Source: Eubacteriales bacterium (lineage in GTDB: Bacteria; Bacillota; Clostridia; Oscillospirales; CAG-272). Taken from it: a stretch of DNA of 64,000 bases. The notes below the pieces were generated by a model that worked only from the letters and a program-made list of their open reading frames with translations, ran no database searches and was not told the origin of the DNA. This document shows positions 1-29,529 of this stretch, one piece after another. Made by a program: the position numbers and the translations under genes. The number at the start of each line of letters is the position of its first letter. The stretch's first letter is position 1. The DNA lies in contig JBGVHJ010000130.1 of the NCBI GenBank assembly GCA_045122255.1, positions 2,208 through 66,207 of the forward strand. Direction: 5' to 3'.

Positions 1-1018
1 ATGCAGCGGAACGGGACATCAGACGTCCTGCACCGTGAGGTGCGGAGCAGTTCCAATCCTCGTTGCCCTTGCCAATACAAATAAGCGAACCGTCGCGCAT
101 ATTGATGGGAACGAGAAGCTTCTCGCCCGCCTTTGCGGAGACTGCGCCCTTACGGAGTATCATCTCATTCACGTCTATGTAGTTGTGAATGGTCTGAAAA
201 GTCTCGACGGCTATCCAGCCGCAACGCTCAAGAATAATCTCTGCCATTCTTGCACGGTTTCTCTCGGCAAACTTCTGACAGATATCCACGTCGTGGAGGT
301 AGTCCTCCATAAAGGAGCCATAGAGGAAGCAAAGGTCACGGGGGAGCGTAGGCTCCTTGGCATTGAATTCCTTCTCAAGCGCCTTAATCGTTGCCTGAAT
401 TTCGGTTCTTCTGCCCTCGGCCTTGTAGGTGCGGATGATCTCCTCGCGCTGCTTGAAATACTCCTCCTTGCCCACGTTGAGATCAACGGCGATCTGCTGA
501 TAGAACTCGGCAACCTGTGTACCAAGGTTGCGGCTGCCGGAGTGAATGACAAGGTACTTGCCTCCATTCTCGTCTACGTCAACTTCAATAAAGTGGTTGC
601 CGCCGCCAAGCGTTCCGAGGGAACGCTCAAGACGCTTGGAATCCTTGAGGTATCTGTAGCAACGGAGCTGTGTGAGATCAAATCTCTCCTGTCTGCCATC
701 CCAAACGTTTCTGCCGCAGGGGATGAAATGTGCCGCCTCATCCACCTTCTCAAAATCAATATCAATGTTGTCAAGGTACACGGTGTACATGCCGCAACCG
801 ATATCCACACCGACCATCGAGGGAACGATCTTGTCGGTGATGGTCATAGTTGTACCAATGGTACACCCCTTGCCCGCGTGGACGTCGGGCATGATTCTGA
901 TCTTCGAGGACGCAAATGCCTCGGTATCGCACACCGCCTTTATCTGCTCACGCGCACCGTCCTCAAGGGTAGTAGCAAAGCACTTTGCAGTGTTAAAATT
1001 TCCTATAATCTCTATCAT
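1..1018 (-). CDS. rtcB: RNA ligase RtcB (3'-phosphate/5'-hydroxyl RNA-splicing ligase); C-terminal end runs off the left window edge
   Basis: It is absent from the ORF track because there is no stop codon inside the window. My minus-strand translation from ATG 1018..1016 gives MIEIIGNF..RIMPDVHAGKGCTIGTT..VGVDIGCGM..LGGGNHFIEV..VIHSGSRNLG..CSAPHGAGRLMSRS, the canonical RtcB motifs. An AGGAGA RBS lies about 7 nt upstream. The listed plus-strand ORF 35..1090 is its antisense shadow. Confidence 0.93.
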   Translation of the reverse strand, partial: MIEIIGNFNTAKCFATTLEDGAREQIKAVCDTEAFASSKIRIMPDVHAGKGCTIGTTMTITDKIVPSMVGVDIGCGMYTVYLDNIDIDFEKVDEAAHFIPCGRNVWDGRQERFDLTQLRCYRYLKDSKRLERSLGTLGGGNHFIEVDVDENGGKYLVIHSGSRNLGTQVAEFYQQIAVDLNVGKEEYFKQREEIIRTYKAEGRRTEIQATIKALEKEFNAKEPTLPRDLCFLYGSFMEDYLHDVDICQKFAERNRARMAEIILERCGWIAVETFQTIHNYIDVNEMILRKGAVSAKAGEKLLVPINMRDGSLICIGKGNEDWNCSAPHGAGRLMSRSAA

Positions 1019-1095
1019 GTCATTCTCCTTTCATATTGTACGGTCGGGCTATATTGTAGTTATATGGTTACAACGCGCCCGACCGTATAAAGGAT

Positions 1096-2199
1096 TTAGG
1101 CGTTGTTACCGTTTAAAATTGCGGTAAGCTGACCAAGAATATTGCCATTACCGTTCAAGGAAATGTTGCCTACGTTCTCGCAAATGCGCTCAACGTATTC
1201 CAGCTCCTTGAGCTTGTAAAGGGTCTGGTTTTCATCCATCAGCTTTGCCGTGTTCAAGAGAGAACGAGTGGATGCAACCTCCTCACGGCGAGTGATTACG
1301 TTTGCTTGTGCGCGCTTTTCTGCGACAAGGACGGTGTTCATGATCTCGCGGATCTCGCCGGGAAGAATGATATCCTTGACGCCTGCATCCGTAATTTCTA
1401 CGAACAGATCCTTTTCCTTGGCTTTCAGTTTAGCGAACACAAACTCGGACATCTGATCCTTGTTTTCAAGGATCTCATCCAGCTTGTATTTGCCAACGTA
1501 TTCGCGCAGGGCAAGCTGTGCCGCCACGTGCATTTGCTCTGCGAAATCATCGATCTCGGTCAGAATCTTGACGTAGTCGGTCACGCGGTAGTTGCAGACA
1601 AAATTGATGCGGAGAGAAACCTTATCTGCGGTAAGGATCTCCTGACCCGTGATATCCATTTGTGTCAAACGGGTATCCACAAAGCCCACGTCTACTTTAA
1701 TGGGAGTTTTCCAGAAGTAGTAAGTGCCTGCATCCAAAATGCGCTCAAGCTTCTGATTGAAGTAGAGTCTTGCCTTCTGGTATTCGGCAACCTCGATCTT
1801 GGTGTAATAGATCTGAGGGATTTTTGAGAAGATGTACTCGGGGATGGATTCGTCAACTGTAGGTGTAGAGATATCCACGATTTTGAATTCGTGTTGATCT
1901 ACGACAGACCAAAAGGCATATTTGCCGTGACGAAGAACGGAAGAAAACTTACCGTTTACATAGTGGAGAGCAAGTTCCTCGTCGCCTACTTCGACGACTG
2001 CAACTTGATCGACAACTGCTTTGTCTGCAAGCAAGGTTTCAAGAGCGCACTTGCTGCAAACGATAGGCTGTCCCAAGTTGGAAATCTCAATCTCCTTGCC
2101 GTTAAACAGGTGATATTTGCCTGCACCGAGCGTTTTTGTATACTTTCCGTTTTTGAAGAGAAACCCCTTCTGATTTTCATTAATAATCATCTTTTTCAT
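1096..2199 (-). CDS. slipin family protein (SPFH/Band-7 domain)
   Basis: A 367-aa ORF with a C-terminal SPFH core (ILTADKVSLRINFVCNYRV, AQLALREYVG, IILPGEIREIMN, AEKRAQANVITRREE). A GGAGG RBS precedes the ATG at 2199. It is co-directional with rtcB, 77 nt upstream of it. Confidence 0.85.
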   Translation of the reverse strand: MKKMIINENQKGFLFKNGKYTKTLGAGKYHLFNGKEIEISNLGQPIVCSKCALETLLADKAVVDQVAVVEVGDEELALHYVNGKFSSVLRHGKYAFWSVVDQHEFKIVDISTPTVDESIPEYIFSKIPQIYYTKIEVAEYQKARLYFNQKLERILDAGTYYFWKTPIKVDVGFVDTRLTQMDITGQEILTADKVSLRINFVCNYRVTDYVKILTEIDDFAEQMHVAAQLALREYVGKYKLDEILENKDQMSEFVFAKLKAKEKDLFVEITDAGVKDIILPGEIREIMNTVLVAEKRAQANVITRREEVASTRSLLNTAKLMDENQTLYKLKELEYVERICENVGNISLNGNGNILGQLTAILNGNNA

Positions 2200-2216
2200 A
2201 ATAAGTTATCCTCCTT

Positions 2217-2645
2217 AAAGGTAGTAAAGTCGCCTCGCTATCATTCATGCAAAAGCAGCGGCTGAAAATTTGAGTACCTCCTGCACAGTGCGGAAAGAAA
2301 TCTTTTGGCACTGTTTGGGATAACACGGTATCCATTCTCAGGCAAGGCCCCATTTGCATTGCTCTGCGAGGCGTACCGAAGCACTTCTCGCTTTGCCGAA
2401 TGATAACGAATCCTGAACAGAAATGTTCTCTTGCACACAATATCGTGCGCGTCATCTTTTGCGTCCCGAAGGACAAATCTTCCAAACCGCTGGCGATATG
2501 CTTTTGCATACGGCGGGATTCGAACCCACGAATATCGAGCTTGACAGGCTCAAGGAGCAAGTGTTCTTCTGGCATACACTTTGGAACATCCTCGTGCACC
2601 GCTGTGAAGGATCAACTCAAACACTGGCTTGAAGTAACCTTGCAA
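2217..2645 (-). ncRNA. Structured non-coding leader or ncRNA upstream of slipin-rtcB; class unknown
   Basis: About 430 nt with no RBS-preceded ORF. On the minus strand there are several exact hairpins. They are GUCC-UUCG-GGAC (2463..2474), CGAG-AA-GUGC-UUCG-GUAC-GC-CUCG (2367..2390), ACAGUGC/GCACUGU (2285..2314), GGAUA/UAUCC (2318..2333) and UAUGC-AAAA-GCAUA (2498..2511). It also contains the tRNA-like module at 2505..2552. Whether it is a 5' UTR or a separate RNA cannot be decided from sequence. Confidence 0.5.
2505..2552 (-). ncRNA. tRNA-Asp(GUC)-like 3' portion (anticodon arm, variable loop, T-arm, 3' acceptor strand) with no matching 5' half
   Basis: The minus strand reads UGAGC-CUGUCAA-GCUCG AUAUUC GUGGG-UUCGAAU-CCCGC CGUAUGC A. 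This gives a 7-nt loop with U33-GUC-A37, a canonical GG-UUCGAAUCC T-arm and a 7-nt acceptor-like tail. The upstream sequence does not supply a complementary GCAUACG acceptor strand or a D-arm, so it is not a functional tRNA gene. Confidence 0.5.
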
Positions 2646-2649
2646 GTAT

Positions 2650-2658
2650 ATTTTACCA
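2650..2658 (-). promoter_or_regulatory. Candidate extended -10 element (TGgTAAAAT) for the structured leader/slipin-rtcB transcript
   Basis: The minus strand reads ..GGAATGGTAAAATATACTTG.., which matches TGnTAxAAT. The -35 is weak (GTGAAA/CGTGAA). It lies just downstream of the WYL-gene terminator and two long inverted repeats. Confidence 0.3.
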
Positions 2659-2699
2659 TTCCGGTCACCGTTTTTCACGGAAAAAAAGCTGCGAAAACA

Positions 2700-2805
2700 C
2701 ACGGCGCGTGCAATTTTTCAATAAATTGAACAAACATTTGCGCCGTGCTGAAATATTCCTCGCAGTTTGAACAACCGCGTTTCGCAAGCGAAAACGGAAT
2801 ATTTC
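2700..2805. repeat. Two adjacent long inverted repeats (8-bp CACGGCGC/GCGCCGTG at 2700..2747; 10-bp GAAATATTCC/GGAATATTTC at 2750..2805), each with a nested inner hairpin
   Basis: The complementarity is exact and read directly from the sequence. The inner stems are CAATTT/AAATTG and CGTTTCGC/GCGAAAACG. The repeats sit between the WYL operon terminator and the candidate promoter, so they could be operators or RNA structure. Confidence 0.7.
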
Positions 2806-2829
2806 CTAAGGCCAGCAAAAAGCCGCGAA

Positions 2830-2858
2830 AATAACAAAAAAGCCCTCGAATGAGAGCT
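2830..2858 (-). terminator. Rho-independent terminator after the WYL gene pair
   Basis: The minus strand reads AGCUCUC-AUUC-GAGGGCU (one mismatch) followed by UUUUUUGUUAUUUU. It lies 7 nt after the stop codon at 2865..2867. Confidence 0.55.
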
Positions 2859-2864
2859 TTTTCA

Positions 2865-3776
2865 CTATTTTAATCCACAATTTAACTGTTTTTTCAGCTT
2901 TTCGATGATCAATTGCTTGAAAGATCCCGATCCGATAACCTCTACCATCGGTCCAAAGGAAAGGATTCTTATCACCATTTCGGGTTCATCATCGTGAGCA
3001 TATTTGATTTTTACGAGGTAATACTTTTTGTCAAGCTTTTCGGCTTGCTTTTCAAAATGGGCAAAATGGAGCATAAATCGTTCCATTGCATTCCGCTCGT
3101 CACGAATCTTTACGGTGATCGTGTCGTAAATCACCGCCTTTTCCTCACCTACCGATTGCCTTTCTCCGGTGTAATGAGCACAGGATCTGATCTTGGCAAG
3201 GTTGACGGTTGAAACGGCACGCCATCCCGCAGTGATCAATCTGAACTTGTCATCCTTTTCGGAATATTCGAGTCTTACAGGGCGGCATCTGACAAACATG
3301 GTGTTGCCCTTGCGGTTGACCATTTCGAACTTGATCTGAGAATCTTTTCGTATCGCCTCTAAAATGATTCGGAATTGTCTTATGTATTCTTCATCCTCAA
3401 AGGGATCTCCGTCGCCGTACTTATCGTAGACATGATAATCCGCAGGGGTGAAAAGTGGCTCCACGCCGTCAAGATTGGGAAATTCCACGCCGAACAATTT
3501 TACACGCGGGTCAAGCGAAATGGCTTTCAACCATTGCTTTTGAAGTGTGGTCAGCGGCATTGTTGGCTTGTGTTCAAGTGAGGTGGTCATATCGGAATGC
3601 ACGAGCTGCCATTTCTCGGTTTTGAGGGAGGGCATGATAGTTAATACACTCTCACCGAATGCACGCTCGGCTACGATCTTTTGCAATTCCTTTTCGGAAT
3701 GCTCGCCGTCAATGATGCCGGATATAATGGCGGCAACCGTATTGTAATATGCAGAGTAAAGCTCGGAAAATATCAT
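2865..3776 (-). CDS. WYL domain-containing protein (second of a pair)
   Basis: It has a WYL-type core (MFVRCRPVRLEYSEKDDKFRLITAG) followed by a WCX-like C-terminal beta-rich region. I place the start at MIFSELY (ATG 3776) because that gives an ATGA stop/start overlap with the upstream gene. Confidence 0.75.
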   Translation of the reverse strand: MIFSELYSAYYNTVAAIISGIIDGEHSEKELQKIVAERAFGESVLTIMPSLKTEKWQLVHSDMTTSLEHKPTMPLTTLQKQWLKAISLDPRVKLFGVEFPNLDGVEPLFTPADYHVYDKYGDGDPFEDEEYIRQFRIILEAIRKDSQIKFEMVNRKGNTMFVRCRPVRLEYSEKDDKFRLITAGWRAVSTVNLAKIRSCAHYTGERQSVGEEKAVIYDTITVKIRDERNAMERFMLHFAHFEKQAEKLDKKYYLVKIKYAHDDEPEMVIRILSFGPMVEVIGSGSFKQLIIEKLKKQLNCGLK

Positions 3777-5032
3777 TCGCTTACCTCCTCTTTTACATCG
3801 TACATCCAATACATAGCTTCCAAGTCCTTTTTGAATTGGTTCTCAACGCTACGATTGGAGAAGTTCATTTTTACGATACGGCAGATAAAGGTTCTGATCC
3901 AAGGGATCATCTCGCTTGAATCATAAACATCAGCAGAAAATCGATAGGTGTTCTCGTCCAGCTTTTCTACCGTTCCGACGCGCTTTTCGCGTTCAAGGCG
4001 CTTGATAATATATTCCTCATTGTCTTCCACCTTAACCGTAAATTCTACGTGCTCAAGGTGCTCCACGCCCCATTTGTTGCGCTTAACACTAACTCCCCAC
4101 ATCTTGCTTTGCATTCTGTCCAGCTCCGCACGAAGCTCGTCAAAGCGAGGAGTGGGATCTTCAAGCTTTACGTTGGATAAGTAATCCACACGGTAAGAGT
4201 GGAAGGAATTGTATTCAGGCAGATACGCAAGCAGATGCTGTCTGCCGCTTTGCACGCTGATGAACACACGAAGCGGAACGATACGGTTTCGTCTCGGCAT
4301 ATCTCTGCGACGGCTCATATTCGATATCGTTACAGCGCGCTTTTCTCTCATTGCCGTGAACAGAGAAGCAAGAACGCCGCTGTCAATGGCACCGGTTATG
4401 TAATGATGCTTGAAGGTGAACGCATCGGTATCGGATTCCTCTTTGTCGAGTATAAACGATCCGACGACTCCACAGGGAGCAACCTCCGAGAAATAATGCA
4501 AGACCTCGTCAAGGTCGGCAATGTCAGTATTATCGGCTCTGCGATAATATGCCTTTCGTCCTTCTTTTTCTGCCACGATAATTCCGGCTTCGCAGTATTC
4601 CTTAAGCTTTTTGCGAACGGTGGACTCATCGTACATCTGGGGGCTTTCAAAGCCAGACAGATATTTCTCATCAATTTTCTCAAGCAGCTCGGAAATAGTA
4701 CGCTTGACAGACGGATCGTGGAGAATGTCGAAGATAATGAAATGCAACGTAATATCGCCATCGGTAAAGCTCTTTGCTTTCCAAGCATTGTACAGCGGGT
4801 TGTGCCTGATCGTGCGGCTATCGATGGAGATGAAAACGTTTTTACCTTCGGGAGTGCGAACGAAGCTCATGTGATCGCCGAGCCAGCTTTCAAGGCGACG
4901 GCGCTCGTCATCGTAAGAACGCGCACTCTTGCTTTGATAGTCGTCACGGCTCTTGAAGCCGTAAACGTAGAAATCACGCATATATGCTCTGATTTTCTCA
5001 AAATTTTTGATAAGCTCACTGTATGAGGACAT
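3773..5032 (-). CDS. WYL domain-containing putative transcriptional regulator (first of a pair)
   Basis: A 419-aa ORF. It has an N-terminal wHTH-like region, a central WYL core (RIVPLRVFISVQSGRQHLLAYLPEYNSFHSYRVDYLSNV) and a C-terminal extension. It is translationally coupled to the next gene. Confidence 0.8.
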   Translation of the reverse strand: MSSYSELIKNFEKIRAYMRDFYVYGFKSRDDYQSKSARSYDDERRRLESWLGDHMSFVRTPEGKNVFISIDSRTIRHNPLYNAWKAKSFTDGDITLHFIIFDILHDPSVKRTISELLEKIDEKYLSGFESPQMYDESTVRKKLKEYCEAGIIVAEKEGRKAYYRRADNTDIADLDEVLHYFSEVAPCGVVGSFILDKEESDTDAFTFKHHYITGAIDSGVLASLFTAMREKRAVTISNMSRRRDMPRRNRIVPLRVFISVQSGRQHLLAYLPEYNSFHSYRVDYLSNVKLEDPTPRFDELRAELDRMQSKMWGVSVKRNKWGVEHLEHVEFTVKVEDNEEYIIKRLEREKRVGTVEKLDENTYRFSADVYDSSEMIPWIRTFICRIVKMNFSNRSVENQFKKDLEAMYWMYDVKEEVSE

Positions 5033-5070: not shown

Positions 5071-5496
5071 TTAGATTAAAATTCCATTACAATGATCCAC
5101 CTCATGCTGAATGATCTGTGCTGTCCAGCCGTTGAAGTTTTTCGTGCGCGTTTGCATATCCAAGGTCTGATACTGCACCTTGATGGTCTTATAGCGTTTA
5201 CACTTGCGTGGACCACCGAGAAGCGACAGACAGCCTTCCTCGGTATCATATGATCCGTCCTTCTTGATGATCTCGGGATTGAACATCACGGTATATGTAG
5301 GAGCTCGTCCGCTCTCGTCATGGAAAGCGATGATGCGCTTACGTACGCCGATCATATTTGCCGCCATTCCGACACAGCTTTCTCTGTGCGCCATCAGCGT
5401 ATCAAGCAGGTCATGTGCGACTTGCAAATCTTCTTTTGTTGCGACCTCCGACTTTCCTGCGAGAAATATCGGATCGTGCATCAGTTCTTTAATCAT
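5071..5496 (-). CDS. def: peptide deformylase
   Basis: The three def motifs are present: GMAANMIG (GxGxAAxQ-like), EEGCLSL and QHEVDHCNG (HExxH). The start is set at MIKELMHDPIFL (ATG 5496), which overlaps the upstream gene's stop by 8 nt. Confidence 0.9.
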   Translation of the reverse strand: MIKELMHDPIFLAGKSEVATKEDLQVAHDLLDTLMAHRESCVGMAANMIGVRKRIIAFHDESGRAPTYTVMFNPEIIKKDGSYDTEEGCLSLLGGPRKCKRYKTIKVQYQTLDMQTRTKNFNGWTAQIIQHEVDHCNGILI

Positions 5497-6097
5497 CCGT
5501 CTCCTCGCTATCGTTTGTGGCCACTTCGTAAGGCTTTCCTTTTTTCGCTTCAGTAGCAACTACTGCCTCGAGATTATCCAGAATAAATCTTTGTGCCTCC
5601 TCATTATAAAGCACTACCTGATACTCTCCGTAGCGTCCCGTTCGGGTCTCAACAGTAATTCCAATTTGATTTCCCTCCTCGGTCGGACGTTTAACGGGCT
5701 TCTTGCCGCCAAAATCATGTAAATAAAGCATTCCTATATTCAGAAGCCATTGGTTGATCTGGCGATAGGACACCTTCTCCATATTTTCGTTCTCGGTCAT
5801 TGCATAAATTCGCTTTGCAATCTCGCTAACAGGAATGGGCTCTTCGGAATATTCGAATTTCTCAAGTTGCTCAACAGAAACCGCAAACGGGATTTTAGGA
5901 GTACGCTTCGGCTTGTTTACCCCGCCGTTCTCATATACCTGACGAAGAATGTCCGACACATAGAAAAAGCAACGAGACAGGCGAACATTATTCGCTATAT
6001 CGTCGTCCGGAATAGGCGTATCGTCCAGTGGATTGATACCGTTTGCCAATTTGTCTATAAAAGATTTTGCGTATGCGATTTTTTCAAGTTCTGTCAT
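5489..6097 (-). CDS. hypothetical protein (about 202 aa, acidic C-terminus)
   Basis: The open frame has an AAAGGAA RBS 8 nt before ATG 6097 (MTELEKIAY..). The track's 6118 start is a TTG with no RBS. I recognise no family. The gene is flanked by two copies of the def 5' end. Confidence 0.7.
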   Translation of the reverse strand: MTELEKIAYAKSFIDKLANGINPLDDTPIPDDDIANNVRLSRCFFYVSDILRQVYENGGVNKPKRTPKIPFAVSVEQLEKFEYSEEPIPVSEIAKRIYAMTENENMEKVSYRQINQWLLNIGMLYLHDFGGKKPVKRPTEEGNQIGITVETRTGRYGEYQVVLYNEEAQRFILDNLEAVVATEAKKGKPYEVATNDSEETDD

Positions 6098-6127
6098 ACA
6101 AATAATTCCTTTCTTCAATTGCGATTT

Positions 6128-16106: not shown

Positions 16107-16946
16107 TTATATGATCAGCCGCATATGCTCCATCCTTTTTCTGTGCTCCGCGCCGGTTGTGACGATATAGATGCGTGTCGTGTTGATGCTTGCATGCCCG
16201 AGAATATCCGCAAGCTTGGCGATATCCTTATCCATACGGTAAAATGTCCTTGCAAACAGGTGCCTCAGATTATGTGGAAAGACCTTGCTTTCGGGCACGT
16301 TTGCCTGAAGGCAGAGCGCCTTCATATCCTTCCAGATACTGTTTCTGCTGACGGGTCTTCCACTTCTTGTGACAAATACCGGACCCGAAACGATCCCGCG
16401 AGCCTTAACGTATCGGAGCAGCTTTTTCTTCAGCTTAGGCACAATAAAAATACGTCTGTTTTTCCCCTTGCAGTTTACCGTCGCTTCCCCACTTCGCAAA
16501 GCTTCCACGGTGATATATTCCAGCTCGCTCACGCGTATACCCGTACCGCAGATCGTTTGTATAATAAGATTAAGGCGCTCATTATGCCTTGCATTCGCCG
16601 CCCCGATCAGTCTGATATACTCCGTGCGAGTCAGCTCCCTATCCTCCGAGCAGTAAGCTTCCCTTTGAACTCTGAATTGCTTGACACAGAGATCGTGCCA
16701 TCCGCAAAACCTAAAAAAGCAATTCATCGCCGCTATCATTGAGTTCGCACTTGCCACCGCGTACGTCTCTCCGAGCTTGCTTTTGTAGTCAAGTATACTC
16801 CGCTTGTCGATCTCCTCACTCTGAACAAATTTTGAAAAACGCTTTACGTCACGCACATATTTCTCGACCGTTGCGCGGCTTCTTTCTTCGTTTATCAAAT
16901 AAATTTCAAATTCCTGTATTTTTTGCGATGATAATTTTCTTCTCAT
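16107..16946 (-). CDS. Tyrosine site-specific recombinase (XerC/D-integrase family; candidate invertase)
   Basis: It has an N-terminal SAM-like core-binding domain and the catalytic residues in GTGIRVSEL (R), HNLRHLFA (HxxR) and LGHASINTTRIY (H..Y). An RBS GAAGGGGA is present. Confidence 0.88.
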   Translation of the reverse strand: MRRKLSSQKIQEFEIYLINEERSRATVEKYVRDVKRFSKFVQSEEIDKRSILDYKSKLGETYAVASANSMIAAMNCFFRFCGWHDLCVKQFRVQREAYCSEDRELTRTEYIRLIGAANARHNERLNLIIQTICGTGIRVSELEYITVEALRSGEATVNCKGKNRRIFIVPKLKKKLLRYVKARGIVSGPVFVTRSGRPVSRNSIWKDMKALCLQANVPESKVFPHNLRHLFARTFYRMDKDIAKLADILGHASINTTRIYIVTTGAEHRKRMEHMRLII

Positions 16947-16977
16947 ATTATTTCCCCTTCATAGAACTGTCCCATTA

Positions 16978-17007
16978 ATTATAACAAAATTCCGTTCGAT
17001 TATTCAA
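16978..17007 (-). promoter_or_regulatory. Candidate promoter of the recombinase gene (TTGAAT-18-TGTTATAAT)
   Basis: On the minus strand, TTGAAT is at 17007..17002 and TATAAT at 16983..16978, preceded by TGT. Confidence 0.45.
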
Positions 17008-17057
17008 AAACTCAGCAACTTCAAGGCTTTGATCATTTATATATACGTCACAAATTA

Positions 17058-17099
17058 CAAAAGCGCAAGGCATCCAAAGAGAAAGCCTTGCGCTTTTTT
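17058..17099 (-). terminator. Intrinsic terminator after the endonuclease I-family gene
   Basis: AAAGCGCAAGGC..GCCUUGCGCUUU is a 12-bp stem with flanking T/A runs on both strands. Confidence 0.75.
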
Positions 17100-17152
17100 A
17101 TCACTGCACGTCGGCACACCGACGAATGCAAAAATACAATTTTTTAATCCAT

Positions 17153-19285
17153 TTATTCTGTCAGGACGTATATTACCACGTCGAGCTGCTGCGAGCCCTC
17201 TGCATAGCACGAAAACAGTGAGCTGGTTTTGTTATATTTAATAAGATTTCTGCTATACGAGCCTTGCGATTTGATCACCGCAGTGCCGTCGGAATTGACC
17301 GTAATGCTCCAGCTTCCGTTGGCATCAAGCGTCGCCTTTGTTCTGAGATAATTATTACTTGAGCTTGCCGCATACAGATACCCGGTGCCGTCTATGTTAA
17401 AAGCAAAGGTGCCGCTAACGGCTCCCGATTCCAACGTAATGATCTGAACCGCTTGAGACGGAGCTGCGAGGCGGTCATCTTCCCTTTCTATCGCGGTCTG
17501 TCCTCGGTTGTTTCCGTTCTGAGTGGTACTCATAGCAAAGCTATGATCCCTCGCGGCAATGATTATCCGATCACCGACCGAAAGCTGAGACACATCCGTA
17601 ACAAGCCTCCAAACGGGCTCGGTCGGCTCATCCTCTTCCCCGAGGTCGATGGCGGTTATCACCGTGTGTCCTTTTATCTGCAGGTCTCTTATCTCTTCAT
17701 CCGTATAAATATTTGTACTCGTGACACCGTCAACGGTCTCTCTGACCTCCCAAGCGAGGTTCTCACTATCCGACAAATCTATGTCAGGGGCAATATTTTT
17801 CAGAGGAGCGTCATTAATTTTATAGAGATCGGAGGCGGTCACTCCGTCAATAGTTCCGTTGGTAACTCTGACAAGGTATTCAGTTCCGATATTGCTTTCC
17901 TTCACTCCGTTAAGGACTACGTCCGCCTTTTTCGCATAATCGATCAAGGTATTATGCATGTGCTTCTCGGCAGGTGTCGTATTGGTTGAGACATAGAGTC
18001 GCGTGTAAACGTATTCGAGCACGCTATAGGTCTCCGTAACGTCTCCCACGGTGACGGTTATACGCTTCCCGATATTTTGCAGAGGCATGCCTTGTTCCGA
18101 TATCCATACCGGATATCCGTACACTGTTAATTGCTTCCCGTTCTCAACAAACGGTTTAATTTTCAATTGAATGTAGTTATTTTCACCATCAAAGCAGAAA
18201 ACCGAGGGCTTTTCGGGCGAAGCAAACATGAATTTAAGCGTGTCGCCGTAATAAATATTGTTGTAAAACGGTCTTTCGGTTTCAGGGAATTCAGGCGTGG
18301 GAGCATCGGGAATTTCTGCTCCTTCGCCACCTTCGTTACCCCCTTCTCCGCCACCCTGAGGAGGTGTGGGCAGCTCCCCGTCAAGGGCAGAAAGCGAGGG
18401 AGTTATCATGCCTTCAGGGACCTCTTTTTCATAAAGAAGCCAAGCAAGCTCGGGGTAGTCGATAAATACGTTTCGGTTGCCCTGAATGTTCTGGACCACC
18501 TCGTTTCTTCCCATTTCCCAGGTATCAACGGGGTCAAGCTCGCACCATTCAAGGAGAACGTCTACGCTTTGGAACACCTCGGTGATGCTGTCAGCACCCC
18601 AATCTTCGCCCCAGCGCACGTAAACGTAAAGGCATATTCTTGCAACGTCGCCCTTGACGTTATCAAGCGGCTCGAAATAATTAGAATTGTAGGTTCCACC
18701 AAGCACTCCTACAGCGGGATTGCTTCCGTACTTTTCACTCGGAGAATTTCCCGATTCGCCGTATTTTTTATTACTTCGGGAGCTATTCACCCCCGCGTCG
18801 GACGGGCGAACATGATGCAAGTCCGCTCCACCACCCGTGGTGTTGCCGCCGCCGAGGCTTTGAGGCCAAACGTGTTCCCTGTTCCAACCGTTCCACTGAT
18901 CCATAGTCGCCTGATAGGATGTGTAAAGCAGGGTCACCTTGCCATTGCCATTTTCGCAGTCGGTCACGTCCGCTTTATAGTGACAGTCATCGTAAGAGGA
19001 CACCTTTGAATGAGTATCTGTCATAAGAGAGTGAAGGGAGCTCTTCAACACGCTTGAAGACAACGTGATCAAAGTGTCAAAGGAATAGCTTCCAGTATAA
19101 TAGGAATATGCGCTCGTTCCGTCCAAGGAGGTGCACCACACGCCGCGCGTGCCGGAGTTGTATTCCTTCGAATAGGTCTGCACTTGAGCGGCGTCCGCCC
19201 ACATCGGAAGGTGAAATGCTGTAAAAATAACGCTCACGAATATTAAGAGTGCCGCAATTTTTGTTGCCATTCTTTTCGGTCGCAT
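17153..19285 (-). CDS. Secreted endonuclease I-family nuclease with a long C-terminal extension
   Basis: The motifs NREHVWPQSLGG, DLHHVRPSDAGVNSSRSNKKYG, KGDVARICLYV and GNRNVFIDYPELA match the Endonuclease_1 (EndA/Vvn/Bsn-like) pattern. The signal peptide is MATKIAALLIFVSVIFTAF. The start is set at ATG 19285 with an AGGAG RBS. The C-terminal domain (WRLVTDVSQLSVGDRIIIAA..WSITVNSDGTAVIK) is homologous to a domain in 19601..22414. Confidence 0.85.
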   Translation of the reverse strand: MRPKRMATKIAALLIFVSVIFTAFHLPMWADAAQVQTYSKEYNSGTRGVWCTSLDGTSAYSYYTGSYSFDTLITLSSSVLKSSLHSLMTDTHSKVSSYDDCHYKADVTDCENGNGKVTLLYTSYQATMDQWNGWNREHVWPQSLGGGNTTGGGADLHHVRPSDAGVNSSRSNKKYGESGNSPSEKYGSNPAVGVLGGTYNSNYFEPLDNVKGDVARICLYVYVRWGEDWGADSITEVFQSVDVLLEWCELDPVDTWEMGRNEVVQNIQGNRNVFIDYPELAWLLYEKEVPEGMITPSLSALDGELPTPPQGGGEGGNEGGEGAEIPDAPTPEFPETERPFYNNIYYGDTLKFMFASPEKPSVFCFDGENNYIQLKIKPFVENGKQLTVYGYPVWISEQGMPLQNIGKRITVTVGDVTETYSVLEYVYTRLYVSTNTTPAEKHMHNTLIDYAKKADVVLNGVKESNIGTEYLVRVTNGTIDGVTASDLYKINDAPLKNIAPDIDLSDSENLAWEVRETVDGVTSTNIYTDEEIRDLQIKGHTVITAIDLGEEDEPTEPVWRLVTDVSQLSVGDRIIIAARDHSFAMSTTQNGNNRGQTAIEREDDRLAAPSQAVQIITLESGAVSGTFAFNIDGTGYLYAASSSNNYLRTKATLDANGSWSITVNSDGTAVIKSQGSYSRNLIKYNKTSSLFSCYAEGSQQLDVVIYVLTE

Positions 19286-19600
19286 ACAAAATCTCCTTTT
19301 TATGTTTTTAAAGATAAAATCGTCTTCAAAAACAGTATAACACATAAAAAGTGGAAAGTAAAGTAATTTTTTTATTTTTATGTGTTGCCTGCGCAAAAAT
19401 CAGCATCAGCATTATTTCTCGCTTTTGCTTTAGTTTTTGGCACATTTTGAGCAATGCGATCTTATTTTGCAAAATAAACAAAATTATGTCCAAAAAACCC
19501 TGAAAATTTACTCGTTTTTCGTCGATTTTGCCAATTTACTTATATATTGGCTTATGTTATAATGATGCTTGTGGAAAAAACACAGAAAGGAAGAGAAAAC

Positions 19601-22414
19601 ATGAAACGTTTCCATTTAGCAGCTCTGTTTGCGATCATACTCGCAGTTGTCATCTTCTTGCCTTCCTGCGGCAATACCGAGACACCTGTGGTACCTGACG
19701 ATACAGAGTCCACAATCAACAGCGAGGTTCCCGAGGAGCCCGATAACAAGGAATCCGACGAAACCAGCGAAAATGCTTCCGAAGAAACAAGCTCTGAGGC
19801 ATCAACAGAAACAACCGAAAACACTACCGAGGAATCTTCCGAGGAGACCACCGAGGACGTAGCGTCTTCCGAGGAGACCACCGAGGAAACCACCGAGGAG
19901 ACCACCGAGGGTCACACTCACAACTACGAGGCTGTAGTAACCGCTCCTACTTGCACCGAGGCAGGTTACACCACCTACACCTGCGAGTGCGGCGACACCT
20001 ACAAGGGTGACGAGGTTGCGGCAAAGGGTCACACCTTCATCGACAGCAAGTGTGCTTGCGGCGAAGAGTACGTTGCAGTTCCCAGCGGCGACTGGATACT
20101 CGTAACCGAGCTCAAGGACGGCGACCGAGTTCTTATCGGCGCTCCCGCTTACGGCAAGCTTCTCTCCGCTCTCAAGGTTTCTGCAGGCTCCTTCTACAAC
20201 AAGGGCGTTGATTATTCCGCAGACAACTTTGCAAACGTAACCGACGACGAGATCTTCGTTGTTACCGTTAACGATGACGGCACCTACACCTTCACCGCAG
20301 TAACCGGCGACGTTCTCGCTCTTGCTGCAAGCTATTCCTCTCTTAACAAGGACGGCGAGCACAAGTCATGGGCACTCACCGACAGAAACGACGGAACATT
20401 CCTTTTGAAGAATACCGGACGTAACCTCTATCTTGAGTGGTACAACTCCAAGGGTAACTGGAGCACCTACTCCGCAGGTAACACCGCTGAGTACTACCTC
20501 TCCTTCTACGTAAAGAATGAAAACGCAGGCGCAGAGCACGTTCACAACCACATCACCAAGGTTGTAGCTCCTACCTGCACCGTTGACGGCTACACCGAGT
20601 ACACCTGTGCTTGTGGCGACACCTACAAGGCAGACGAGGTTAAGGCTTCCGGCACTCACAGCTATACGCCCGAAGTAACCGCTCCCACCTGCACCGAGGC
20701 AGGCTACACCACCTACACCTGCTCTTGCGGTGATAGCTACAAGGCAGACGAGGTTGTAGCAAAGGGCCACACCTTCGTTGAAGGTAAGTGCGAGTGCGGC
20801 GAAAAGGATCCCGATTACAAGCCTCCCGTCCCCGGCGGCGTGGCTGATTTTGACGCCATCGTGCTTCCCTCCACCAAGCCCAACGGCGACTCCTCCTACA
20901 CCGCAACTTACACTTCTCCCAACGGCTGGATCACAGCTAACTCTGCAATTCAGTGCGGAGGTCCCGCAGGATGCTCCAATCCTCAGTACGTTGTTGTAGG
21001 TCCCGACAACACCCACAAGGCAGTATGCCTTAACGGTAAGACAACCGCTCCCGGTAAGATCACATCCCCCACTCTCAATACCGGTATTTCCAAGCTCACT
21101 ATTCAGTACACCAAGATATTCACAGATACCGATCTTTCCGTAACCGTTACCATTACCGATGCGGCAGGTAACAAATACACTCACGTTATCGAAAAGCTTG
21201 GTATGGACAAGAACGAGAAATACGTTGTTTATACTGACGAATGGGTTCTCGAAACTCCCGTTTCCGGCGAATTCACCATCGAGATCGTAAACAACTGCCC
21301 TACCGGTCAAACCGGCAACAAGGACCGCTTCACCATTCTCGATCTTTCTTGGGAAGGCGTTCACACTCACAATTACACCGCAACCACCACCGCAACCTGC
21401 ACCGCTGCAGGTGTTACCACCTACACCTGTGAGTGCGGTGACACCTACACCGAGGATACAGCAGCGCTCGGTCACGTTGACGCAAACCTCGACGTCGAGT
21501 GCGACAGAGAGGGCTGCACCAGCAAGGTAGCTCCCAAGGCTGACTCCGTTCTTTCTACATATACCGCTAACTGCGTAGGCTCCAAGGTTTCTGTTTCCAG
21601 CTCCTACTACGTCGTTGGTACTATCGTTGAGGTTCTTGACCAGAAGAACGGTATCTTCCTCATCGACGACGGCACAGGCGAAAAGTTCTATTTCAGACTT
21701 CCCAAGAATGCCGATGGCGTTTCTCACGCAAGCTGGGAGATCAAGCTCGTGCTTGGCGATAAGGTTCAGGTTTACGGCAAGATCAACAAGTACAACTCCA
21801 ACACAGCTCCTAACGGTCAGTACTGGCCCGCAATGCAGTCTCCCGTTGCAACTCTTCTTGAGCAGCACACCCACGACTTCACCTTCAGCCCCGCAGATTG
21901 CTCCGAGCCCGCTCGTTGCGCTTGCGGACAGGGTACCGGTGAGCCTCGCGGTTGCATCGACGAAAACTCCGACAGCATTTGTGACGATTGCGGAAAGAAT
22001 ACCAAGTACAGCTATGAGTACGTTGAGATCAGAACCGATAACGGTAGCGGAGTTCATGATGCTACCGCACTGACCTACACCTGGAGCAGCGATAACTTCA
22101 GTGTGCAGGTAGCTAAGGCTGCCGGCGGTAACCTTTACGTTACCTCCAAGGATCACATGAGAGTTTATAAGAGTAATAACATCATTCTTACCAACAAGAA
22201 CGGTCTCGCTGTCAAGACGGTAACCGTTCATCTCACCAACGAAACTCAGATAGCTAACTTCGAAAAGTTCCTCACCGGATACACCTACACCACCGACGCC
22301 GAGAAATTTACGATCACATTTGAGGTAAGCGCATTTGAAGCTCTTACTCTCACCAACCCCAGCACCGGTTCCACCACCCAGATCAAGGGATTCGAGTTCG
22401 GCTACGAGAAGTAA
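19601..22414 (+). CDS. Large surface lipoprotein: acidic linker, four Cys-rich repeats, a domain shared with the nuclease, and an OB-fold-like module
   Basis: The lipobox is FLPSCG. The linker is E/T/S-rich. Four copies of about 40 aa match APTCT[EV][AD]GYT[TE]YTC.CGD[ST]YK. WILVTELKDGDRVLIGA..WALTDRNDGTFLLK is homologous to the nuclease C-terminus. The OB-like segment is YYVVGTIVEVLDQKNGIFLIDDGTGEKFYF..GDKVQVYGKINKYN. Confidence 0.8.
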   Translation: MKRFHLAALFAIILAVVIFLPSCGNTETPVVPDDTESTINSEVPEEPDNKESDETSENASEETSSEASTETTENTTEESSEETTEDVASSEETTEETTEETTEGHTHNYEAVVTAPTCTEAGYTTYTCECGDTYKGDEVAAKGHTFIDSKCACGEEYVAVPSGDWILVTELKDGDRVLIGAPAYGKLLSALKVSAGSFYNKGVDYSADNFANVTDDEIFVVTVNDDGTYTFTAVTGDVLALAASYSSLNKDGEHKSWALTDRNDGTFLLKNTGRNLYLEWYNSKGNWSTYSAGNTAEYYLSFYVKNENAGAEHVHNHITKVVAPTCTVDGYTEYTCACGDTYKADEVKASGTHSYTPEVTAPTCTEAGYTTYTCSCGDSYKADEVVAKGHTFVEGKCECGEKDPDYKPPVPGGVADFDAIVLPSTKPNGDSSYTATYTSPNGWITANSAIQCGGPAGCSNPQYVVVGPDNTHKAVCLNGKTTAPGKITSPTLNTGISKLTIQYTKIFTDTDLSVTVTITDAAGNKYTHVIEKLGMDKNEKYVVYTDEWVLETPVSGEFTIEIVNNCPTGQTGNKDRFTILDLSWEGVHTHNYTATTTATCTAAGVTTYTCECGDTYTEDTAALGHVDANLDVECDREGCTSKVAPKADSVLSTYTANCVGSKVSVSSSYYVVGTIVEVLDQKNGIFLIDDGTGEKFYFRLPKNADGVSHASWEIKLVLGDKVQVYGKINKYNSNTAPNGQYWPAMQSPVATLLEQHTHDFTFSPADCSEPARCACGQGTGEPRGCIDENSDSICDDCGKNTKYSYEYVEIRTDNGSGVHDATALTYTWSSDNFSVQVAKAAGGNLYVTSKDHMRVYKSNNIILTNKNGLAVKTVTVHLTNETQIANFEKFLTGYTYTTDAEKFTITFEVSAFEALTLTNPSTGSTTQIKGFEFGYEK

Positions 22415-29492: not shown

Positions 29493-29529
29493 TCAATAAT
29501 TGAGGTCAAACAAACAGGTTAATATAATA

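Follow-up and report, generated by a model that had tools for sequence, protein, structure and literature searches.

The window analysed here, a 64-kb stretch of DNA, carries on its minus strand the genes for WYL1 and a second WYL-WCX protein, a terminator, a 665-nt non-coding stretch, and the genes for a slipin and RtcB, in that order. The re-derived minus-strand coordinates agreed with the gene order and sizes given in an earlier note on this DNA, and are as follows:

3773..5032, minus strand: WYL1, 419 aa (Pfam WYL 2.2e-7; PADLOC WYL 4.4e-12)
2865..3776, minus strand: second, divergent WYL-WCX protein, 303 aa
2836..2857, minus strand: intrinsic terminator downstream of the two regulator genes, with hairpin 2857..2842 and a U-run (-17.2 kcal/mol, z -5.6)
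2200..2864, minus strand: non-coding stretch
1096..2199, minus strand: slipin (stomatin-like SPFH protein), 367 aa (Pfam Band_7 1.4e-29)
1..1018, minus strand: rtcB, first 339 codons, with the 3' end beyond the window edge (Pfam RtcB 8e-47)

WYL1 consists of an ArsR-like winged helix (~aa 100-180), a WYL domain (~220-290) and a C-terminal extension, shows weak PDB profile matches to ArsR/SmtB and to PafC/PafB (7p5x), and is kept in at least 57 loci. The ATG of the second regulator overlaps the WYL1 stop codon as ATGA, which points to translational coupling, and this 4-nt overlap is retained in 34 of 51 loci. A Pfam search at 0.01 gave no match for the window copy of the second regulator. It was classified as a WYL-WCX protein because of its PADLOC WYL match (4.4e-8), because its orthologues match WCX (23/25) and WYL (3/25), and because a Foldseek search with its AF2 model retrieved PafBC bound to RNA polymerase (9fnd, 2.4e-8), DriD (7tzv, 7e-8), and also CapW and BrxR. 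The slipin is built of an all-beta N-terminal domain (residues 1-147), an SPFH domain and a coiled coil, and its PDB matches were stomatin PH1511 (3.7e-16) and the human stomatin cages. This protein had been described earlier as membrane-associated, a description that we do not retain, since no 19-residue window of it reaches a hydropathy of 1.6, the usual cut-off over that length for a transmembrane helix (maximum 1.24), and hence no such helix is predicted. The N-terminal domain was modelled by AF2 with a pLDDT of 87, and a fold search with this model gave no significant match and no recognisable RNA-binding fold. Close relatives of the protein carry the NCBI name "slipin family protein". 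The window RtcB has the APHGAGR His motif, and the RtcB of related loci is a full-length protein of 402 aa. The earlier note had also recorded the absence of RtcR, RtcA, archease and Ro; among the ORFs of 1 to 37 kb none of these had a Pfam match.

More than 150 Clostridia contigs were found to contain the cassette. In most of 80 genome loci WYL1, WYL2, the RNA, slipin and RtcB are collinear while the flanking genes vary, and a collinear core between differing flanks supports both the identity of the cassette and the linkage of its parts. When contigs were sampled from the RNA side, slipin lay downstream in 76 of 78, RtcB downstream in 44 of 52 and the WYL pair upstream in 41 of 50. The synteny of the WYL pair with the RNA-slipin-rtcB unit holds down to 45% protein identity; the linkage of the WYL pair to rtcB in relatives, on which the earlier note had staked its model, is thus present. 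RtcB is absent downstream of slipin in about 15-20% of the loci, and RlaP (RNA-ligase-associated nucleotidyltransferase, PF10127, 4.7e-90) is added to the cassette in about 8. A further gene, c5, sits directly 3' of the RNA where it is inserted, and three loci without the WYL pair keep the RNA ahead of slipin. Judged from gene order, this is a self-contained, portable RNA-repair cassette of gut Clostridia that brings its own regulators.

Between the regulator pair and the leader RNA the following elements were located:

2698..2816, minus strand: lineage-specific insertion with inverted repeats, ~120 nt, common only to loci L003 and L007
2675..2695, minus strand: candidate operator TTCGCAGCTTTTTTTCCGTGA, a 21-mer with the imperfect palindrome TTCNCNG-N7-CNGNGAA
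2673..2678, minus strand: weak -35-like GTGAAA, overlapping the candidate operator
2650..2658, minus strand: extended -10 element TGGTAAAAT, from a promoter scan and an alignment of 70 promoters

An operator had previously been placed in the inverted repeats at 2700..2805, but these lie within the insertion that only two related loci have in common, and in all other loci conservation begins at window position 2695. As aligned, the insertion is outside the conserved system, and the conserved site is 2695..2675. Most of ~65 loci carry this candidate operator with 0-1 mismatch, including loci whose regulators share just 45% identity; it was present in 86 of 89 RNA-sampled contigs and occurs once in the 64-kb window. 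Its distance to the -10 element is fixed at 19 nt, with a non-conserved spacer sequence, and in L016 and L035 a second copy precedes extra genes. The terminator is missing in most relatives, where the operator begins 1-3 nt past the stop codon of the second regulator (31 of 48 loci). Promoters that bear the motif have poor -35 hexamers, whereas near-consensus ones (TTGATT, TTGACA and TTGCAA) are seen in the three loci without motif and WYL pair. A near-invariant 21-mer at a constant spacing from the -10 element of the leader promoter fits the WYL pair as the regulator of the operon; the earlier proposal that this pair takes the place of RtcR is supported by this spacing and by the synteny.

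The elements of the leader RNA are:

2217..2645, minus strand: structured leader RNA, ~430 nt, reaching from the predicted start (TTGCAAGG) as far as the Shine-Dalgarno sequence
2574..2599, minus strand: helix H3 (2599..2594/2579..2574) enclosing hairpin H4 (2591..2589/2585..2583), with compensatory pairs
2535..2553, minus strand: anticodon-like hairpin with the 7-nt loop CUGUCAA (2547..2541)
2513..2529, minus strand: T-arm GUGGGUUCGAAUCCCGC with a canonical T-loop, matching the 3' end of the Rfam tmRNA model (E 0.003)
2496..2511, minus strand: hairpin after the T-arm, 94% paired, with 3 compensatory pairs
2236..2408, minus strand: 3' domain, 173 nt, with closing stem 2408..2398/2246..2236, a variable hairpin and a long arm

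The leader is kept along its entire length in ~65 of 80 related loci. RNAalifold on 15 sequences gave 95 pairs, 41 of them with compensatory changes, and the MFE z-score was -3.43; covariation was measured on alignments that had not been fitted to structure. The structured leader with tRNA-like elements that the earlier note had described is borne out by this conservation and these changes, and the comparative evidence indicates that 2645..2217 is a real structured RNA of two domains. There is next to no chance that the non-coding stretch is a decayed tRNA gene followed by plain untranslated sequence, or conceals a small protein gene, for example the 139-codon ORF at 2599..2180. The T-arm could be a tRNA remnant, and ORFs of 74-180 codons overlap the leader region in 14 of 80 loci; however, conservation and compensatory changes span all 430 nt, insertions and deletions ignore the reading frame, and the ORF at 2599..2180 is missing in most loci, so that the covariation in these alignments has effectively refuted both versions already.

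In the 5' tRNA-like domain, H3 and H4 were 100% paired across 27 sequences, and H3 still pairs in distant variants (GTGCGC/GCGTAT, GTACGT/ACGTAT, GTATGC/GCATAT and GTGCCG/CGGTAT). The anticodon-like hairpin shows compensatory changes in 5 of its 6 pairs, and is swapped for larger insertions in other subtypes. The T-arm is nearly invariant, with 100% pairing and one CG/UA exchange. The 5' strand of the hairpin that follows it is also the would-be 3' strand of an acceptor stem, and the acceptor pairing of a cloverleaf, with 2579..2573, competes with two helices that covary. Although this pairing is 94.6% compatible, it has zero compensatory pairs, and the cloverleaf acceptor stem is not borne out. 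ARAGORN called no tRNA in the window, but 7 related loci have a tRNA call at the corresponding position. Most of the conserved structure of the leader lies in the 3' domain, which is not tRNA-like and which the earlier note had overlooked. Over 57 sequences and 32 pairs it was 91.7% paired, against 72.7% after shuffling, with a covariation score of 0.575 (reached in 0 of 500 shuffles) against 0.21 after shuffling and 0.09-0.15 in slid controls. Its closing stem covaries, and its long arm carries the conserved loops GGAUACC, CCAAAAG, UUUCCGC and CAGCCGC. The distance from this domain (from GGAUACCG) to the first start codon is a constant ~137 nt, and there is no terminator between leader and slipin. 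In comparisons with Rfam no family reached its gathering score, tRNA and Y RNA included.

According to 10.1101/312249, which cites Burroughs and Aravind (2016), a band 7-associated tRNA adjoins RtcB and was proposed to be a Y-RNA analogue; the earlier note was correct in placing Band-7 proteins in RtcB neighbourhoods. Going by this secondary description, the leader corresponds to that "band 7-associated tRNA". The combination of Band-7 protein, tRNA-like RNA and RtcB was, on this account, predicted in 2016 by comparative genomics. The same group proposed WYL and CARF factors as sensors of cyclic-phosphate RNA, some of which regulate RNA repair pathways (PMC9503650), and cites its own 2016 paper for WYL transcription factors. 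Taken together, the 2016 prediction and this statement make the cassette a variant of the predicted kind. As in the predicted RtcB/Band-7/b7a-tRNA systems (Nucleic Acids Res 2016), RtcB adjoins a Band-7 protein and a tRNA-like RNA, with RlaP as an occasional partner. In contrast to those systems as 10.1101/312249 describes them, the leader here is, at ~430 nt, much longer than a tRNA, no acceptor stem is supported for its tRNA-like part, most of its conserved structure lies in the extra 173-nt domain, and a WYL-WCX regulator pair with a defined candidate operator is present. An SPFH gene also lies within the Pseudomonas rtc locus (PMC13086221). What appears new here is the two-domain RNA with its possible alternative fold, and the PafBC-like regulator pair with its operator.

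We regard it as rather probable that the locus is a Clostridial version of RtcB-centred RNA repair, in which a Band-7/SPFH protein and a tRNA-like RNA accompany the ligase, and we infer its mechanism, including the sensing of RNA ends by the WYL pair, as follows. The two WYL-WCX proteins would be made by coupled translation and probably form a PafBC-like heteromer. Its binding site would be the conserved 21-mer, whose centre lies near -42 in a promoter that combines an extended -10 with a poor -35. The WYL domains would sense products of nucleic-acid damage, RNA fragments with 2',3'-cyclic phosphate ends being the most plausible, and the pair would then activate transcription. Against this, the solved WYL regulators PafBC, DriD and CapW bind ssDNA. 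The predicted transcript would contain the ~430-nt two-domain RNA first and then slipin and rtcB, with no terminator between. The RNA, as uncut or processed leader, and an oligomeric soluble slipin may form a ribonucleoprotein scaffold resembling Ro60/Y RNA, which would present broken tRNA or rRNA to RtcB for sealing. Points against this model are that the N-terminal domain of the slipin has no recognisable RNA-binding fold, that the RNA scores below the Rfam tRNA and Y-RNA thresholds, that the acceptor stem shows no compensatory pairs, and that some 15-20% of the loci have no RtcB downstream of slipin.

The polarity of the regulators could be the reverse. An operator over the -35 region is compatible with a repressor no less than with a class II activator, and the conserved extended -10 element TGGTAAAAT could work without a -35 and give activator-free, basal activity. 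It is possible, if somewhat doubtful, that the WYL pair is a BrxR/CapW-like repressor that occludes the -35 of a constitutively competent promoter until freed by a damage-derived ligand: the candidate operator overlaps the GTGAAA, the second regulator also matches CapW and BrxR significantly in structure, and WYL proteins have been described as repressors of defence systems (PMC11888443). Against this, the activators PafBC (RNA polymerase-bound) and DriD rank above the repressors, the paralogous two-gene layout is that of PafBC, a centre near -42 is a class II activator position, and poor -35 hexamers accompany the motif while the three motif-less loci have near-consensus ones.

The leader itself might act differently. 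In an unlikely reading it is a sentinel or decoy, whose anticodon-like loop mimics those of the Asp, Tyr, Asn and His tRNAs. An incoming colicin E5-like anticodon nuclease would cut this loop, the cyclic-phosphate fragments would signal to the WYL pair, RtcB would reseal leader and tRNAs, and the competing helices would switch between a tRNA-like and a closed form. A loop of this type would link the leader to colicin E5 and the queuosine tRNAs. The loop is U-G-U-N in 16 of 27 close relatives, with C, A, U or G at N, but these 27 sequences are closely related, so that the pattern may be inherited rather than selected. Strand 2511..2506 varies by transitions only, which preserves both alternative pairings, yet distant relatives do not keep the acceptor pairing. 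Between regulators and operator most loci lack a terminator, which makes a low basal level of leader by read-through plausible, and Salmonella RtcR is activated by tRNA fragments (PMC7790460); however, the cassette encodes no nuclease, and in many loci (a subtype with a second T-arm, and distant subtypes) the anticodon-like hairpin is replaced by very different insertions while the rest of the system is kept. A purely cis-acting leader, that is, a 5' UTR that works like a riboswitch or by binding protein and controls the translation or stability of slipin/rtcB, for instance by slipin/RtcB feedback or by sensing uncharged or damaged tRNA, with no role as a separate RNA, seems improbable. In every case the RNA forms the 5' leader of the first gene, at the constant spacing and with no terminator between, and the inserted gene c5 takes the slot directly after it. 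On the other hand, the leader showed no terminator/antiterminator pair, no convincing Shine-Dalgarno-sequestering pairing and no match to Rfam T-box or riboswitch models even at E 10; a UTR of ~430 nt with a canonical T-arm would be unusually elaborate, and the analogous Ro systems use trans-acting Y RNAs.

The favoured reading, RtcB-centred repair with an RNA-slipin scaffold, finds a parallel in Salmonella rsr-yrlBA-rtcBA, also a ligase operon with a tRNA-like-domain RNA, a putative scaffold protein and a factor that senses nucleic acids, as the WYL pair here would. That operon is controlled by the CARF-domain activator RtcR, whereas here RtcR, RtcA and Ro/TROVE were not found (1-37 kb), the promoter is sigma-70-type and not sigma-54, the scaffold would be an SPFH protein, and the RNA has no Y-RNA or YrlA match in Rfam. 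With actinobacterial PafBC the cassette shares two adjacent paralogous WYL-WCX genes, and with PafBC and Caulobacter DriD, both WYL activators and the top structural matches of the second protein, a conserved site just upstream of the -10 in a weak -35 promoter. In contrast, the similarity to them in sequence is marginal (PDB profile E 0.17-1.8), no helix-turn-helix is recognisable in the second protein, and the putatively activated target is an RNA-repair operon and not DNA-damage genes. As in the anti-phage repressors BrxR/CapW, a WYL-WCX regulator stands directly upstream of the system in a portable cassette, but those are single-gene homodimeric repressors, whereas this cassette has two coupled paralogues and promoter features that favour activation. 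The slipin resembles the cage-forming stomatin/slipin SPFH proteins in its SPFH domain and coiled coil, which match P. horikoshii and human stomatin; in place of their transmembrane hairpin it has the all-beta N-terminal domain of 147 residues, of which some homologues have 2-3 repeats.

The coordinates, together with the Pfam and PADLOC assignments, confirmed the gene order that had been read from the sequence, i.e., two WYL genes, a terminator, a non-coding stretch, a slipin gene and rtcB, and the features of the cassette are listed here.

Features of the cassette and of its leader RNA
5032..3773, minus strand: WYL1, 419 codons
3776..2865, minus strand: second WYL-WCX protein, 303 codons; start codon and WYL1 stop codon overlap as ATGA
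2864..2200, minus strand: non-coding stretch, 665 nt
2857..2842, minus strand: terminator hairpin, followed by a U-run; -17.2 kcal/mol, z -5.6
2553..2535, minus strand: anticodon-like hairpin in the 5′ domain of the leader RNA, scored in 27 close relatives
2408..2236, minus strand: 3′ domain of the leader RNA, closed by a stem and containing a variable hairpin and a long arm
2199..1096, minus strand: slipin, 367 codons
1018..1, minus strand: rtcB, of which the first 339 codons are present; the gene runs past the window edge

The 339-aa RtcB fragment was recognized by Pfam (PF01139, 8e-47), and close to its end it carries the sequence APHGAGR, in which HGAGR corresponds to the nucleophilic histidine motif of E. 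coli RtcB. WYL1 matched the Pfam WYL family (2.2e-7) and the PADLOC WYL model (4.4e-12, the match reaching residue 388), and its residues 100-188 gave weak ArsR/SmtB-like matches (E 0.001-0.06). With the second regulator, the window copy alone had no Pfam match (WCX scored E 0.024), no HTH match was found, and the N-terminus of its AlphaFold2 model was of low confidence. This protein was assigned as WYL-WCX because it matched the PADLOC WYL model (4.4e-8), because 23/25 of its orthologues carry Pfam WCX (best 5.3e-9) and 3/25 carry WYL, and because its AlphaFold2 model (mean pLDDT 65; WYL part 75-82, WCX 85-92) found structural matches among WYL proteins. As judged by Foldseek, these were PafBC bound to RNA polymerase (9fnd, 2.4e-8), DriD (7e-8) and PafBC (6sj9), followed by CapW (3e-5), the Cas13d accessory protein also named WYL1 (1e-4) and BrxR (1.5e-4), the probability being 1.0 for PafBC, DriD, CapW and BrxR. 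The 4-nt overlap of the two regulator genes is kept in 34/51 loci. Directly upstream of WYL1 (5071-6118, minus strand) there is a peptide deformylase gene, whose called start is overlapped by a 209-aa ORF without a Pfam match.

The slipin matched Pfam Band_7 (1.4e-29) and, over residues 137-346, archaeal and human stomatin in the PDB, the SPFH domain being followed by a coiled coil; its close relatives carry the NCBI name 'slipin family protein'. The earlier note had taken this protein to be membrane-associated, a view that its sequence and model did not bear out. No hydrophobic segment was detected along the protein (the top 19-residue Kyte-Doolittle mean was 1.24 vs the usual cut-off of 1.6), and the first 147 residues were modeled as an all-beta domain (AlphaFold2 pLDDT 87), for which the PDB search returned no significant fold match and a partial likeness to the leading strands of SPFH proteins only. 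On these two grounds, the slipin is predicted to be a soluble SPFH protein that is not anchored in the membrane. Longer homologues (P0121, P0123, P0124, P0125 and P0128; 496-639 aa) have two to three tandem copies of the N-terminal all-beta unit, of ~135 aa each, before a single SPFH domain.

A slipin-based scan with one genome per species gave 255 relatives, and 80 loci were fetched, nearly all of them from uncultured Oscillospirales and other Clostridia of the gut and rumen. The synteny of the WYL pair, slipin and rtcB, on which the earlier reading depended, was borne out by tblastn, i.e., the order WYL1-WYL2-gap-slipin-RtcB was present in most loci with enough flank and persisted to identities as low as 45% and 42% for the two regulators, while the genes flanking the cassette varied from locus to locus. 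As a sampling protected against circularity, a 30-nt degenerate leader pattern was used to collect 96 metagenome contigs from the RNA side, and each feature was counted over the contigs long enough to hold it. A slipin gene was found ≤1.4 kb downstream of the RNA in 76/78 contigs, RtcB downstream of it in 44/52, the WYL pair directly upstream of it in 41/50, and the 21-mer operator in 86/89. The two slipin exceptions were L106, with a diverged slipin-like ORF, and L127, which is a truncated locus. The cassette is thus conserved and portable. In addition, an RlaP nucleotidyltransferase gene (PF10127, 4.7e-90) follows RtcB in about 8 loci, 9 loci (e.g., L042:5318-5983) encode a 221-aa accessory protein (c5), without a Pfam match or a PDB sequence match, directly behind the leader and ahead of slipin, and DUF4275 recurs as an accessory gene in a few loci. 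RtcA, RtcR, archease and TROVE had no Pfam match among the window ORFs of 1-37 kb, in line with the earlier reading that RtcR, RtcA, archease and Ro are missing from the window, and neither RtcR nor RtcA was found as a recurrent gene in the 80 related loci.

Between the regulators and the slipin, conservation begins sharply at window position 2695 in nearly all loci and extends to the slipin start codon. The RNA, which occurs once in the window, was numbered from r1 = 2645 (UUGCAAGG), a position that follows the -10 element by about 5-7 nt. The window RNA folded better than its shuffles (z -3.43), the 3′ part of its minimum-energy structure agreed with the comparative fold, and RNAalifold, applied to 15 sequences, gave 95 pairs, 41 of which showed compensatory changes. 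Along the long arm of the 3′ domain, the internal loops GGAUACC, CCAAAAG, UUUCCGC and CAGCCGC are nearly invariant. When 32 pairs of this domain were scored on a plain MAFFT alignment of 57 sequences, 91.7% of the cells formed a standard pair vs 72.7% in the shuffled control, two-sided changes were observed in 29/32 pairs, and the covariation score was 0.575 vs 0.21 in the shuffled alignments, none of the 500 shuffles being as high. Sliding the partners by 1-3 columns lowered the score to 0.09-0.15, and the closing stem was found to covary as well. An all-against-all covariation scan was redone with two-sided changes only, because the first version, which counted one-sided changes, was uninformative. 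No Rfam family matched at the gathering score in the whole window, and at E 10 nothing came up in the 2100..3000 region except sequences resembling terminators and 18 nt that matched the tmRNA T-arm (13.7 bits). The structured leader that had been proposed from the sequence is a real RNA whose structure has good support, and Rfam lacks it. In one locus (L009:5780-5880), a ~100-nt insertion lies within a loop of the 3′ domain, with the surrounding helices intact.

The 5′ domain was scored in 27 close relatives. Helix H3 (2599..2594 with 2579..2574), which encloses the small hairpin H4, was 100% paired with compensatory pairs, the T-arm (2529..2513) was canonical and also 100% paired, and the hairpin directly after it (post-T hairpin, 2511..2496) showed three compensatory pairs and is followed by two further hairpins. 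ARAGORN made no tRNA call in the window, and at the homologous place it called a tRNA in 7 loci, mostly as 'Asp', with an acceptor stem formed by GYGUAUG and the strand after the T-arm. Tested directly, this acceptor helix was 94.6% pair-compatible, but none of its 7 pairs showed a compensatory change, and its formation excludes both H3 and the post-T hairpin, the two helices with covariation. H3 is kept in distant relatives (e.g., GUGCCG/CGGUAU), in which the acceptor strands no longer pair. A classical cloverleaf was thus demoted, since its acceptor stem lacks compensatory pairs and competes with two covarying helices; of the tRNA-like module proposed by the earlier note, the T-arm and the anticodon-like hairpin stood and the acceptor stem did not. 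The strand common to the acceptor and the post-T hairpin varies by transitions only, so that both alternative partners are kept. This is how a strand under two constraints would vary, so that the leader might switch between two forms, one tRNA-like and one closed.

The loop of the anticodon-like hairpin reads U-G-U-N in 16/27 close relatives, and each of the four bases occurs at N. U-G-U-N matches the anticodons found in the queuosine tRNAs (Asp, Tyr, Asn and His), which colicin E5 cuts, and mimicry of a colicin E5 target by the queuosine-type loop of the leader may be considered no more than a lead. Other subtypes have larger insertions in place of the anticodon-like hairpin, and these often carry a second T-arm. 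A hammerhead was considered for the CUGAUGAG string of the two-T-arm subtype and was discarded, the GAAA core and G12 being missing by eye. The leader of L106 (461-950; metagenome contig Ga0302308_10071131) is a variant in which two tRNA units of authentic appearance, with the D-loop AGCUCAGGGGUAGAGC and in one of them a CAU loop, come after H3 and H4; the diverged slipin-like ORF lies next.

The promoter region is marked by the 21-mer TTCGCAGCUUUUUUUCCGUGA (2695..2675), which has 0-1 mismatch in most loci and is still recognizable where the regulators share only 45% identity. It starts 1-3 nt past the stop codon of the second regulator in 31/48 loci, and for this reason the terminator present in the window is read as a local addition. 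The earlier note had placed the operator at 2700..2805, and this location was rejected because the stretch belongs to an insertion found in only two other loci (L003 and L007). Possibly a small mobile element, this insertion (2698..2816, minus strand; ~120 nt) is rich in inverted repeats and lies between the terminator and the operator. An extended -10 element, TGGTAAAAT (2658..2650), is found exactly 19 nt from the 21-mer across a spacer that is not conserved, and the sole -35-like hexamer is weak and overlaps the 3′ end of the 21-mer. The pair could act on such a promoter in two ways. PafBC- or DriD-like activation is favored from the promoter layout and the protein model, because the motif is centered near -42, the -35 is weak, and the nearest structural relatives are activators; the main rival is that the WYL pair is a repressor that would occlude the -35 region, where the hexamer and the 21-mer overlap. 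Three loci that lack both the 21-mer and the WYL pair keep the RNA and slipin, and they have near-consensus -35 hexamers (TTGATT, TTGACA and TTGCAA) 17 nt from the -10.

Autoregulation was considered and set aside: the 21-mer occurs once in the window, it was not found upstream of WYL1 in the loci, and no copy of the motif was found between WYL1 and its upstream genes (the peptide deformylase gene and the 209-aa ORF). Additional copies precede genes inserted between the regulators and the RNA, namely a second copy before a DUF2828/DUF7788 gene (L016:3334-5515) and a degenerate one before an AAA/STAND-type ATPase gene (L035:4267-5508), which hints at a small regulon. A PDB sequence search for the DUF2828 protein as a possible Ro relative returned nothing. 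A gene related to the DUF2828/DUF7788 gene was also seen at L044:570-2300.

Burroughs and Aravind (2016), as summarized in bioRxiv 10.1101/312249, reported that RtcB occurs beside a Band-7 protein and an RNA predicted there, the 'band 7-associated tRNA'. This RNA, for which Rfam has no model, was proposed to be functionally redundant with the Y RNA YrlA, and that summary gives it as not validated. WYL and CARF transcription factors may sense cyclic-phosphate RNAs, and some of them regulate RNA repair pathways (PMC9503650); this paper, from the same group, cites the 2016 work for WYL factors. The Pseudomonas rtc locus also contains an SPFH gene (PMC13086221). Systems of this kind were therefore already known as a prediction. 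Our cassette resembles that prediction, as summarized there, in the Band-7 gene adjoining RtcB and in the T-arm and anticodon-like hairpin directly upstream of slipin, and it very probably belongs to these Band-7/tRNA-like/RtcB systems. It resembles PafBC in its two adjacent paralogous WYL genes, whose products may act as one heteromer, and its promoter layout would be compatible with PafBC-type activation, in which a motif upstream of the -10 serves a promoter that lacks a -35 element. The leader differs from a tRNA (Rfam RF00005/ARAGORN) in that it has no cloverleaf score and its acceptor stem does not covary, and from Y RNA/YrlA in that it had no Rfam Y-RNA match even at E 10 and no TROVE gene was found among ORFs of 1-37 kb; unlike an RtcR-regulated rtcBA operon, the cassette is accompanied by neither RtcR (CARF-AAA+) nor RtcA among the same ORFs. 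When compared with the 2016 prediction through its secondary description, the size of the RNA, its two-domain architecture and its status as an operon leader appear new, and so do the paired PafBC-like regulators with their operator/promoter design, the lack of a membrane anchor and the possible switch.

Overall, the observation made in the earlier note was confirmed and its interpretation was partly supported, with the operator site, the acceptor stem and the membrane slipin falling away. In the account that we prefer, the WYL pair would sense damage and then activate the leader promoter, and the leader RNA and slipin would form a scaffold for RtcB; the mechanism is one that we infer throughout, and we hold this account to be somewhat more probable than not. 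It is improbable that the ~430-nt leader is a new class of large structured bacterial RNA and the central working part of the cassette, a bistable tRNA mimic that acts as a damage sensor coupled to its own repair compartment. In that case, an open cloverleaf-like form would offer the queuosine-type anticodon loop to incoming anticodon nucleases, the cleavage products of the leader would be the ligand of the PafBC-like WYL pair, the 3′ domain would dock the leader onto a soluble slipin cage, and RtcB at this cage would reseal both the leader and damaged tRNAs.

To our knowledge, RtcB is universal and its Band-7/tRNA-like branch has never been tested. The cassette makes the question of RtcB targets and substrate finding in bacteria testable: it is compact, consisting of the regulator pair, a single 21-bp site, one RNA and two further proteins, it is abundant among Clostridia of the human and ruminant gut, and coordinates are now available for its candidate operator, predicted transcript start, covariation-backed helices and candidate switch. 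It also brings a large structured RNA family new to Rfam, which comprises about 100 sequences and has strong support for its 3′ domain, and suggests that PafBC-type WYL pairs may control RNA repair besides DNA repair. Sensing of RNA ends by the WYL pair, if it occurs, would widen the known ligand range of the WYL family, and a membrane-free SPFH protein working with RNA may represent a new SPFH role that recalls vault and Ro particles.

A phage or plasmid origin of the leader was not supported, blastn against phage and plasmid collections having returned nothing. A scan of IMG/VR with a degenerate 3′-domain pattern gave 19 matches (L081-L099), none related to the RNA; 17 fell within a single conserved family of protein-coding genes and the other 2 within a different sequence, and degenerate patterns of this sort thus need a context check. 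Elsewhere in the window, two ORFs of >950 aa lack Pfam matches (19547-22414 and 30997-33927), the protein at 29500-30963 has an SNase domain, and, at 16107-19396 (minus strand), a 747-aa Endonuclease_1-domain protein has a tyrosine recombinase as its neighbor (Phage_integrase, 4.4e-24).
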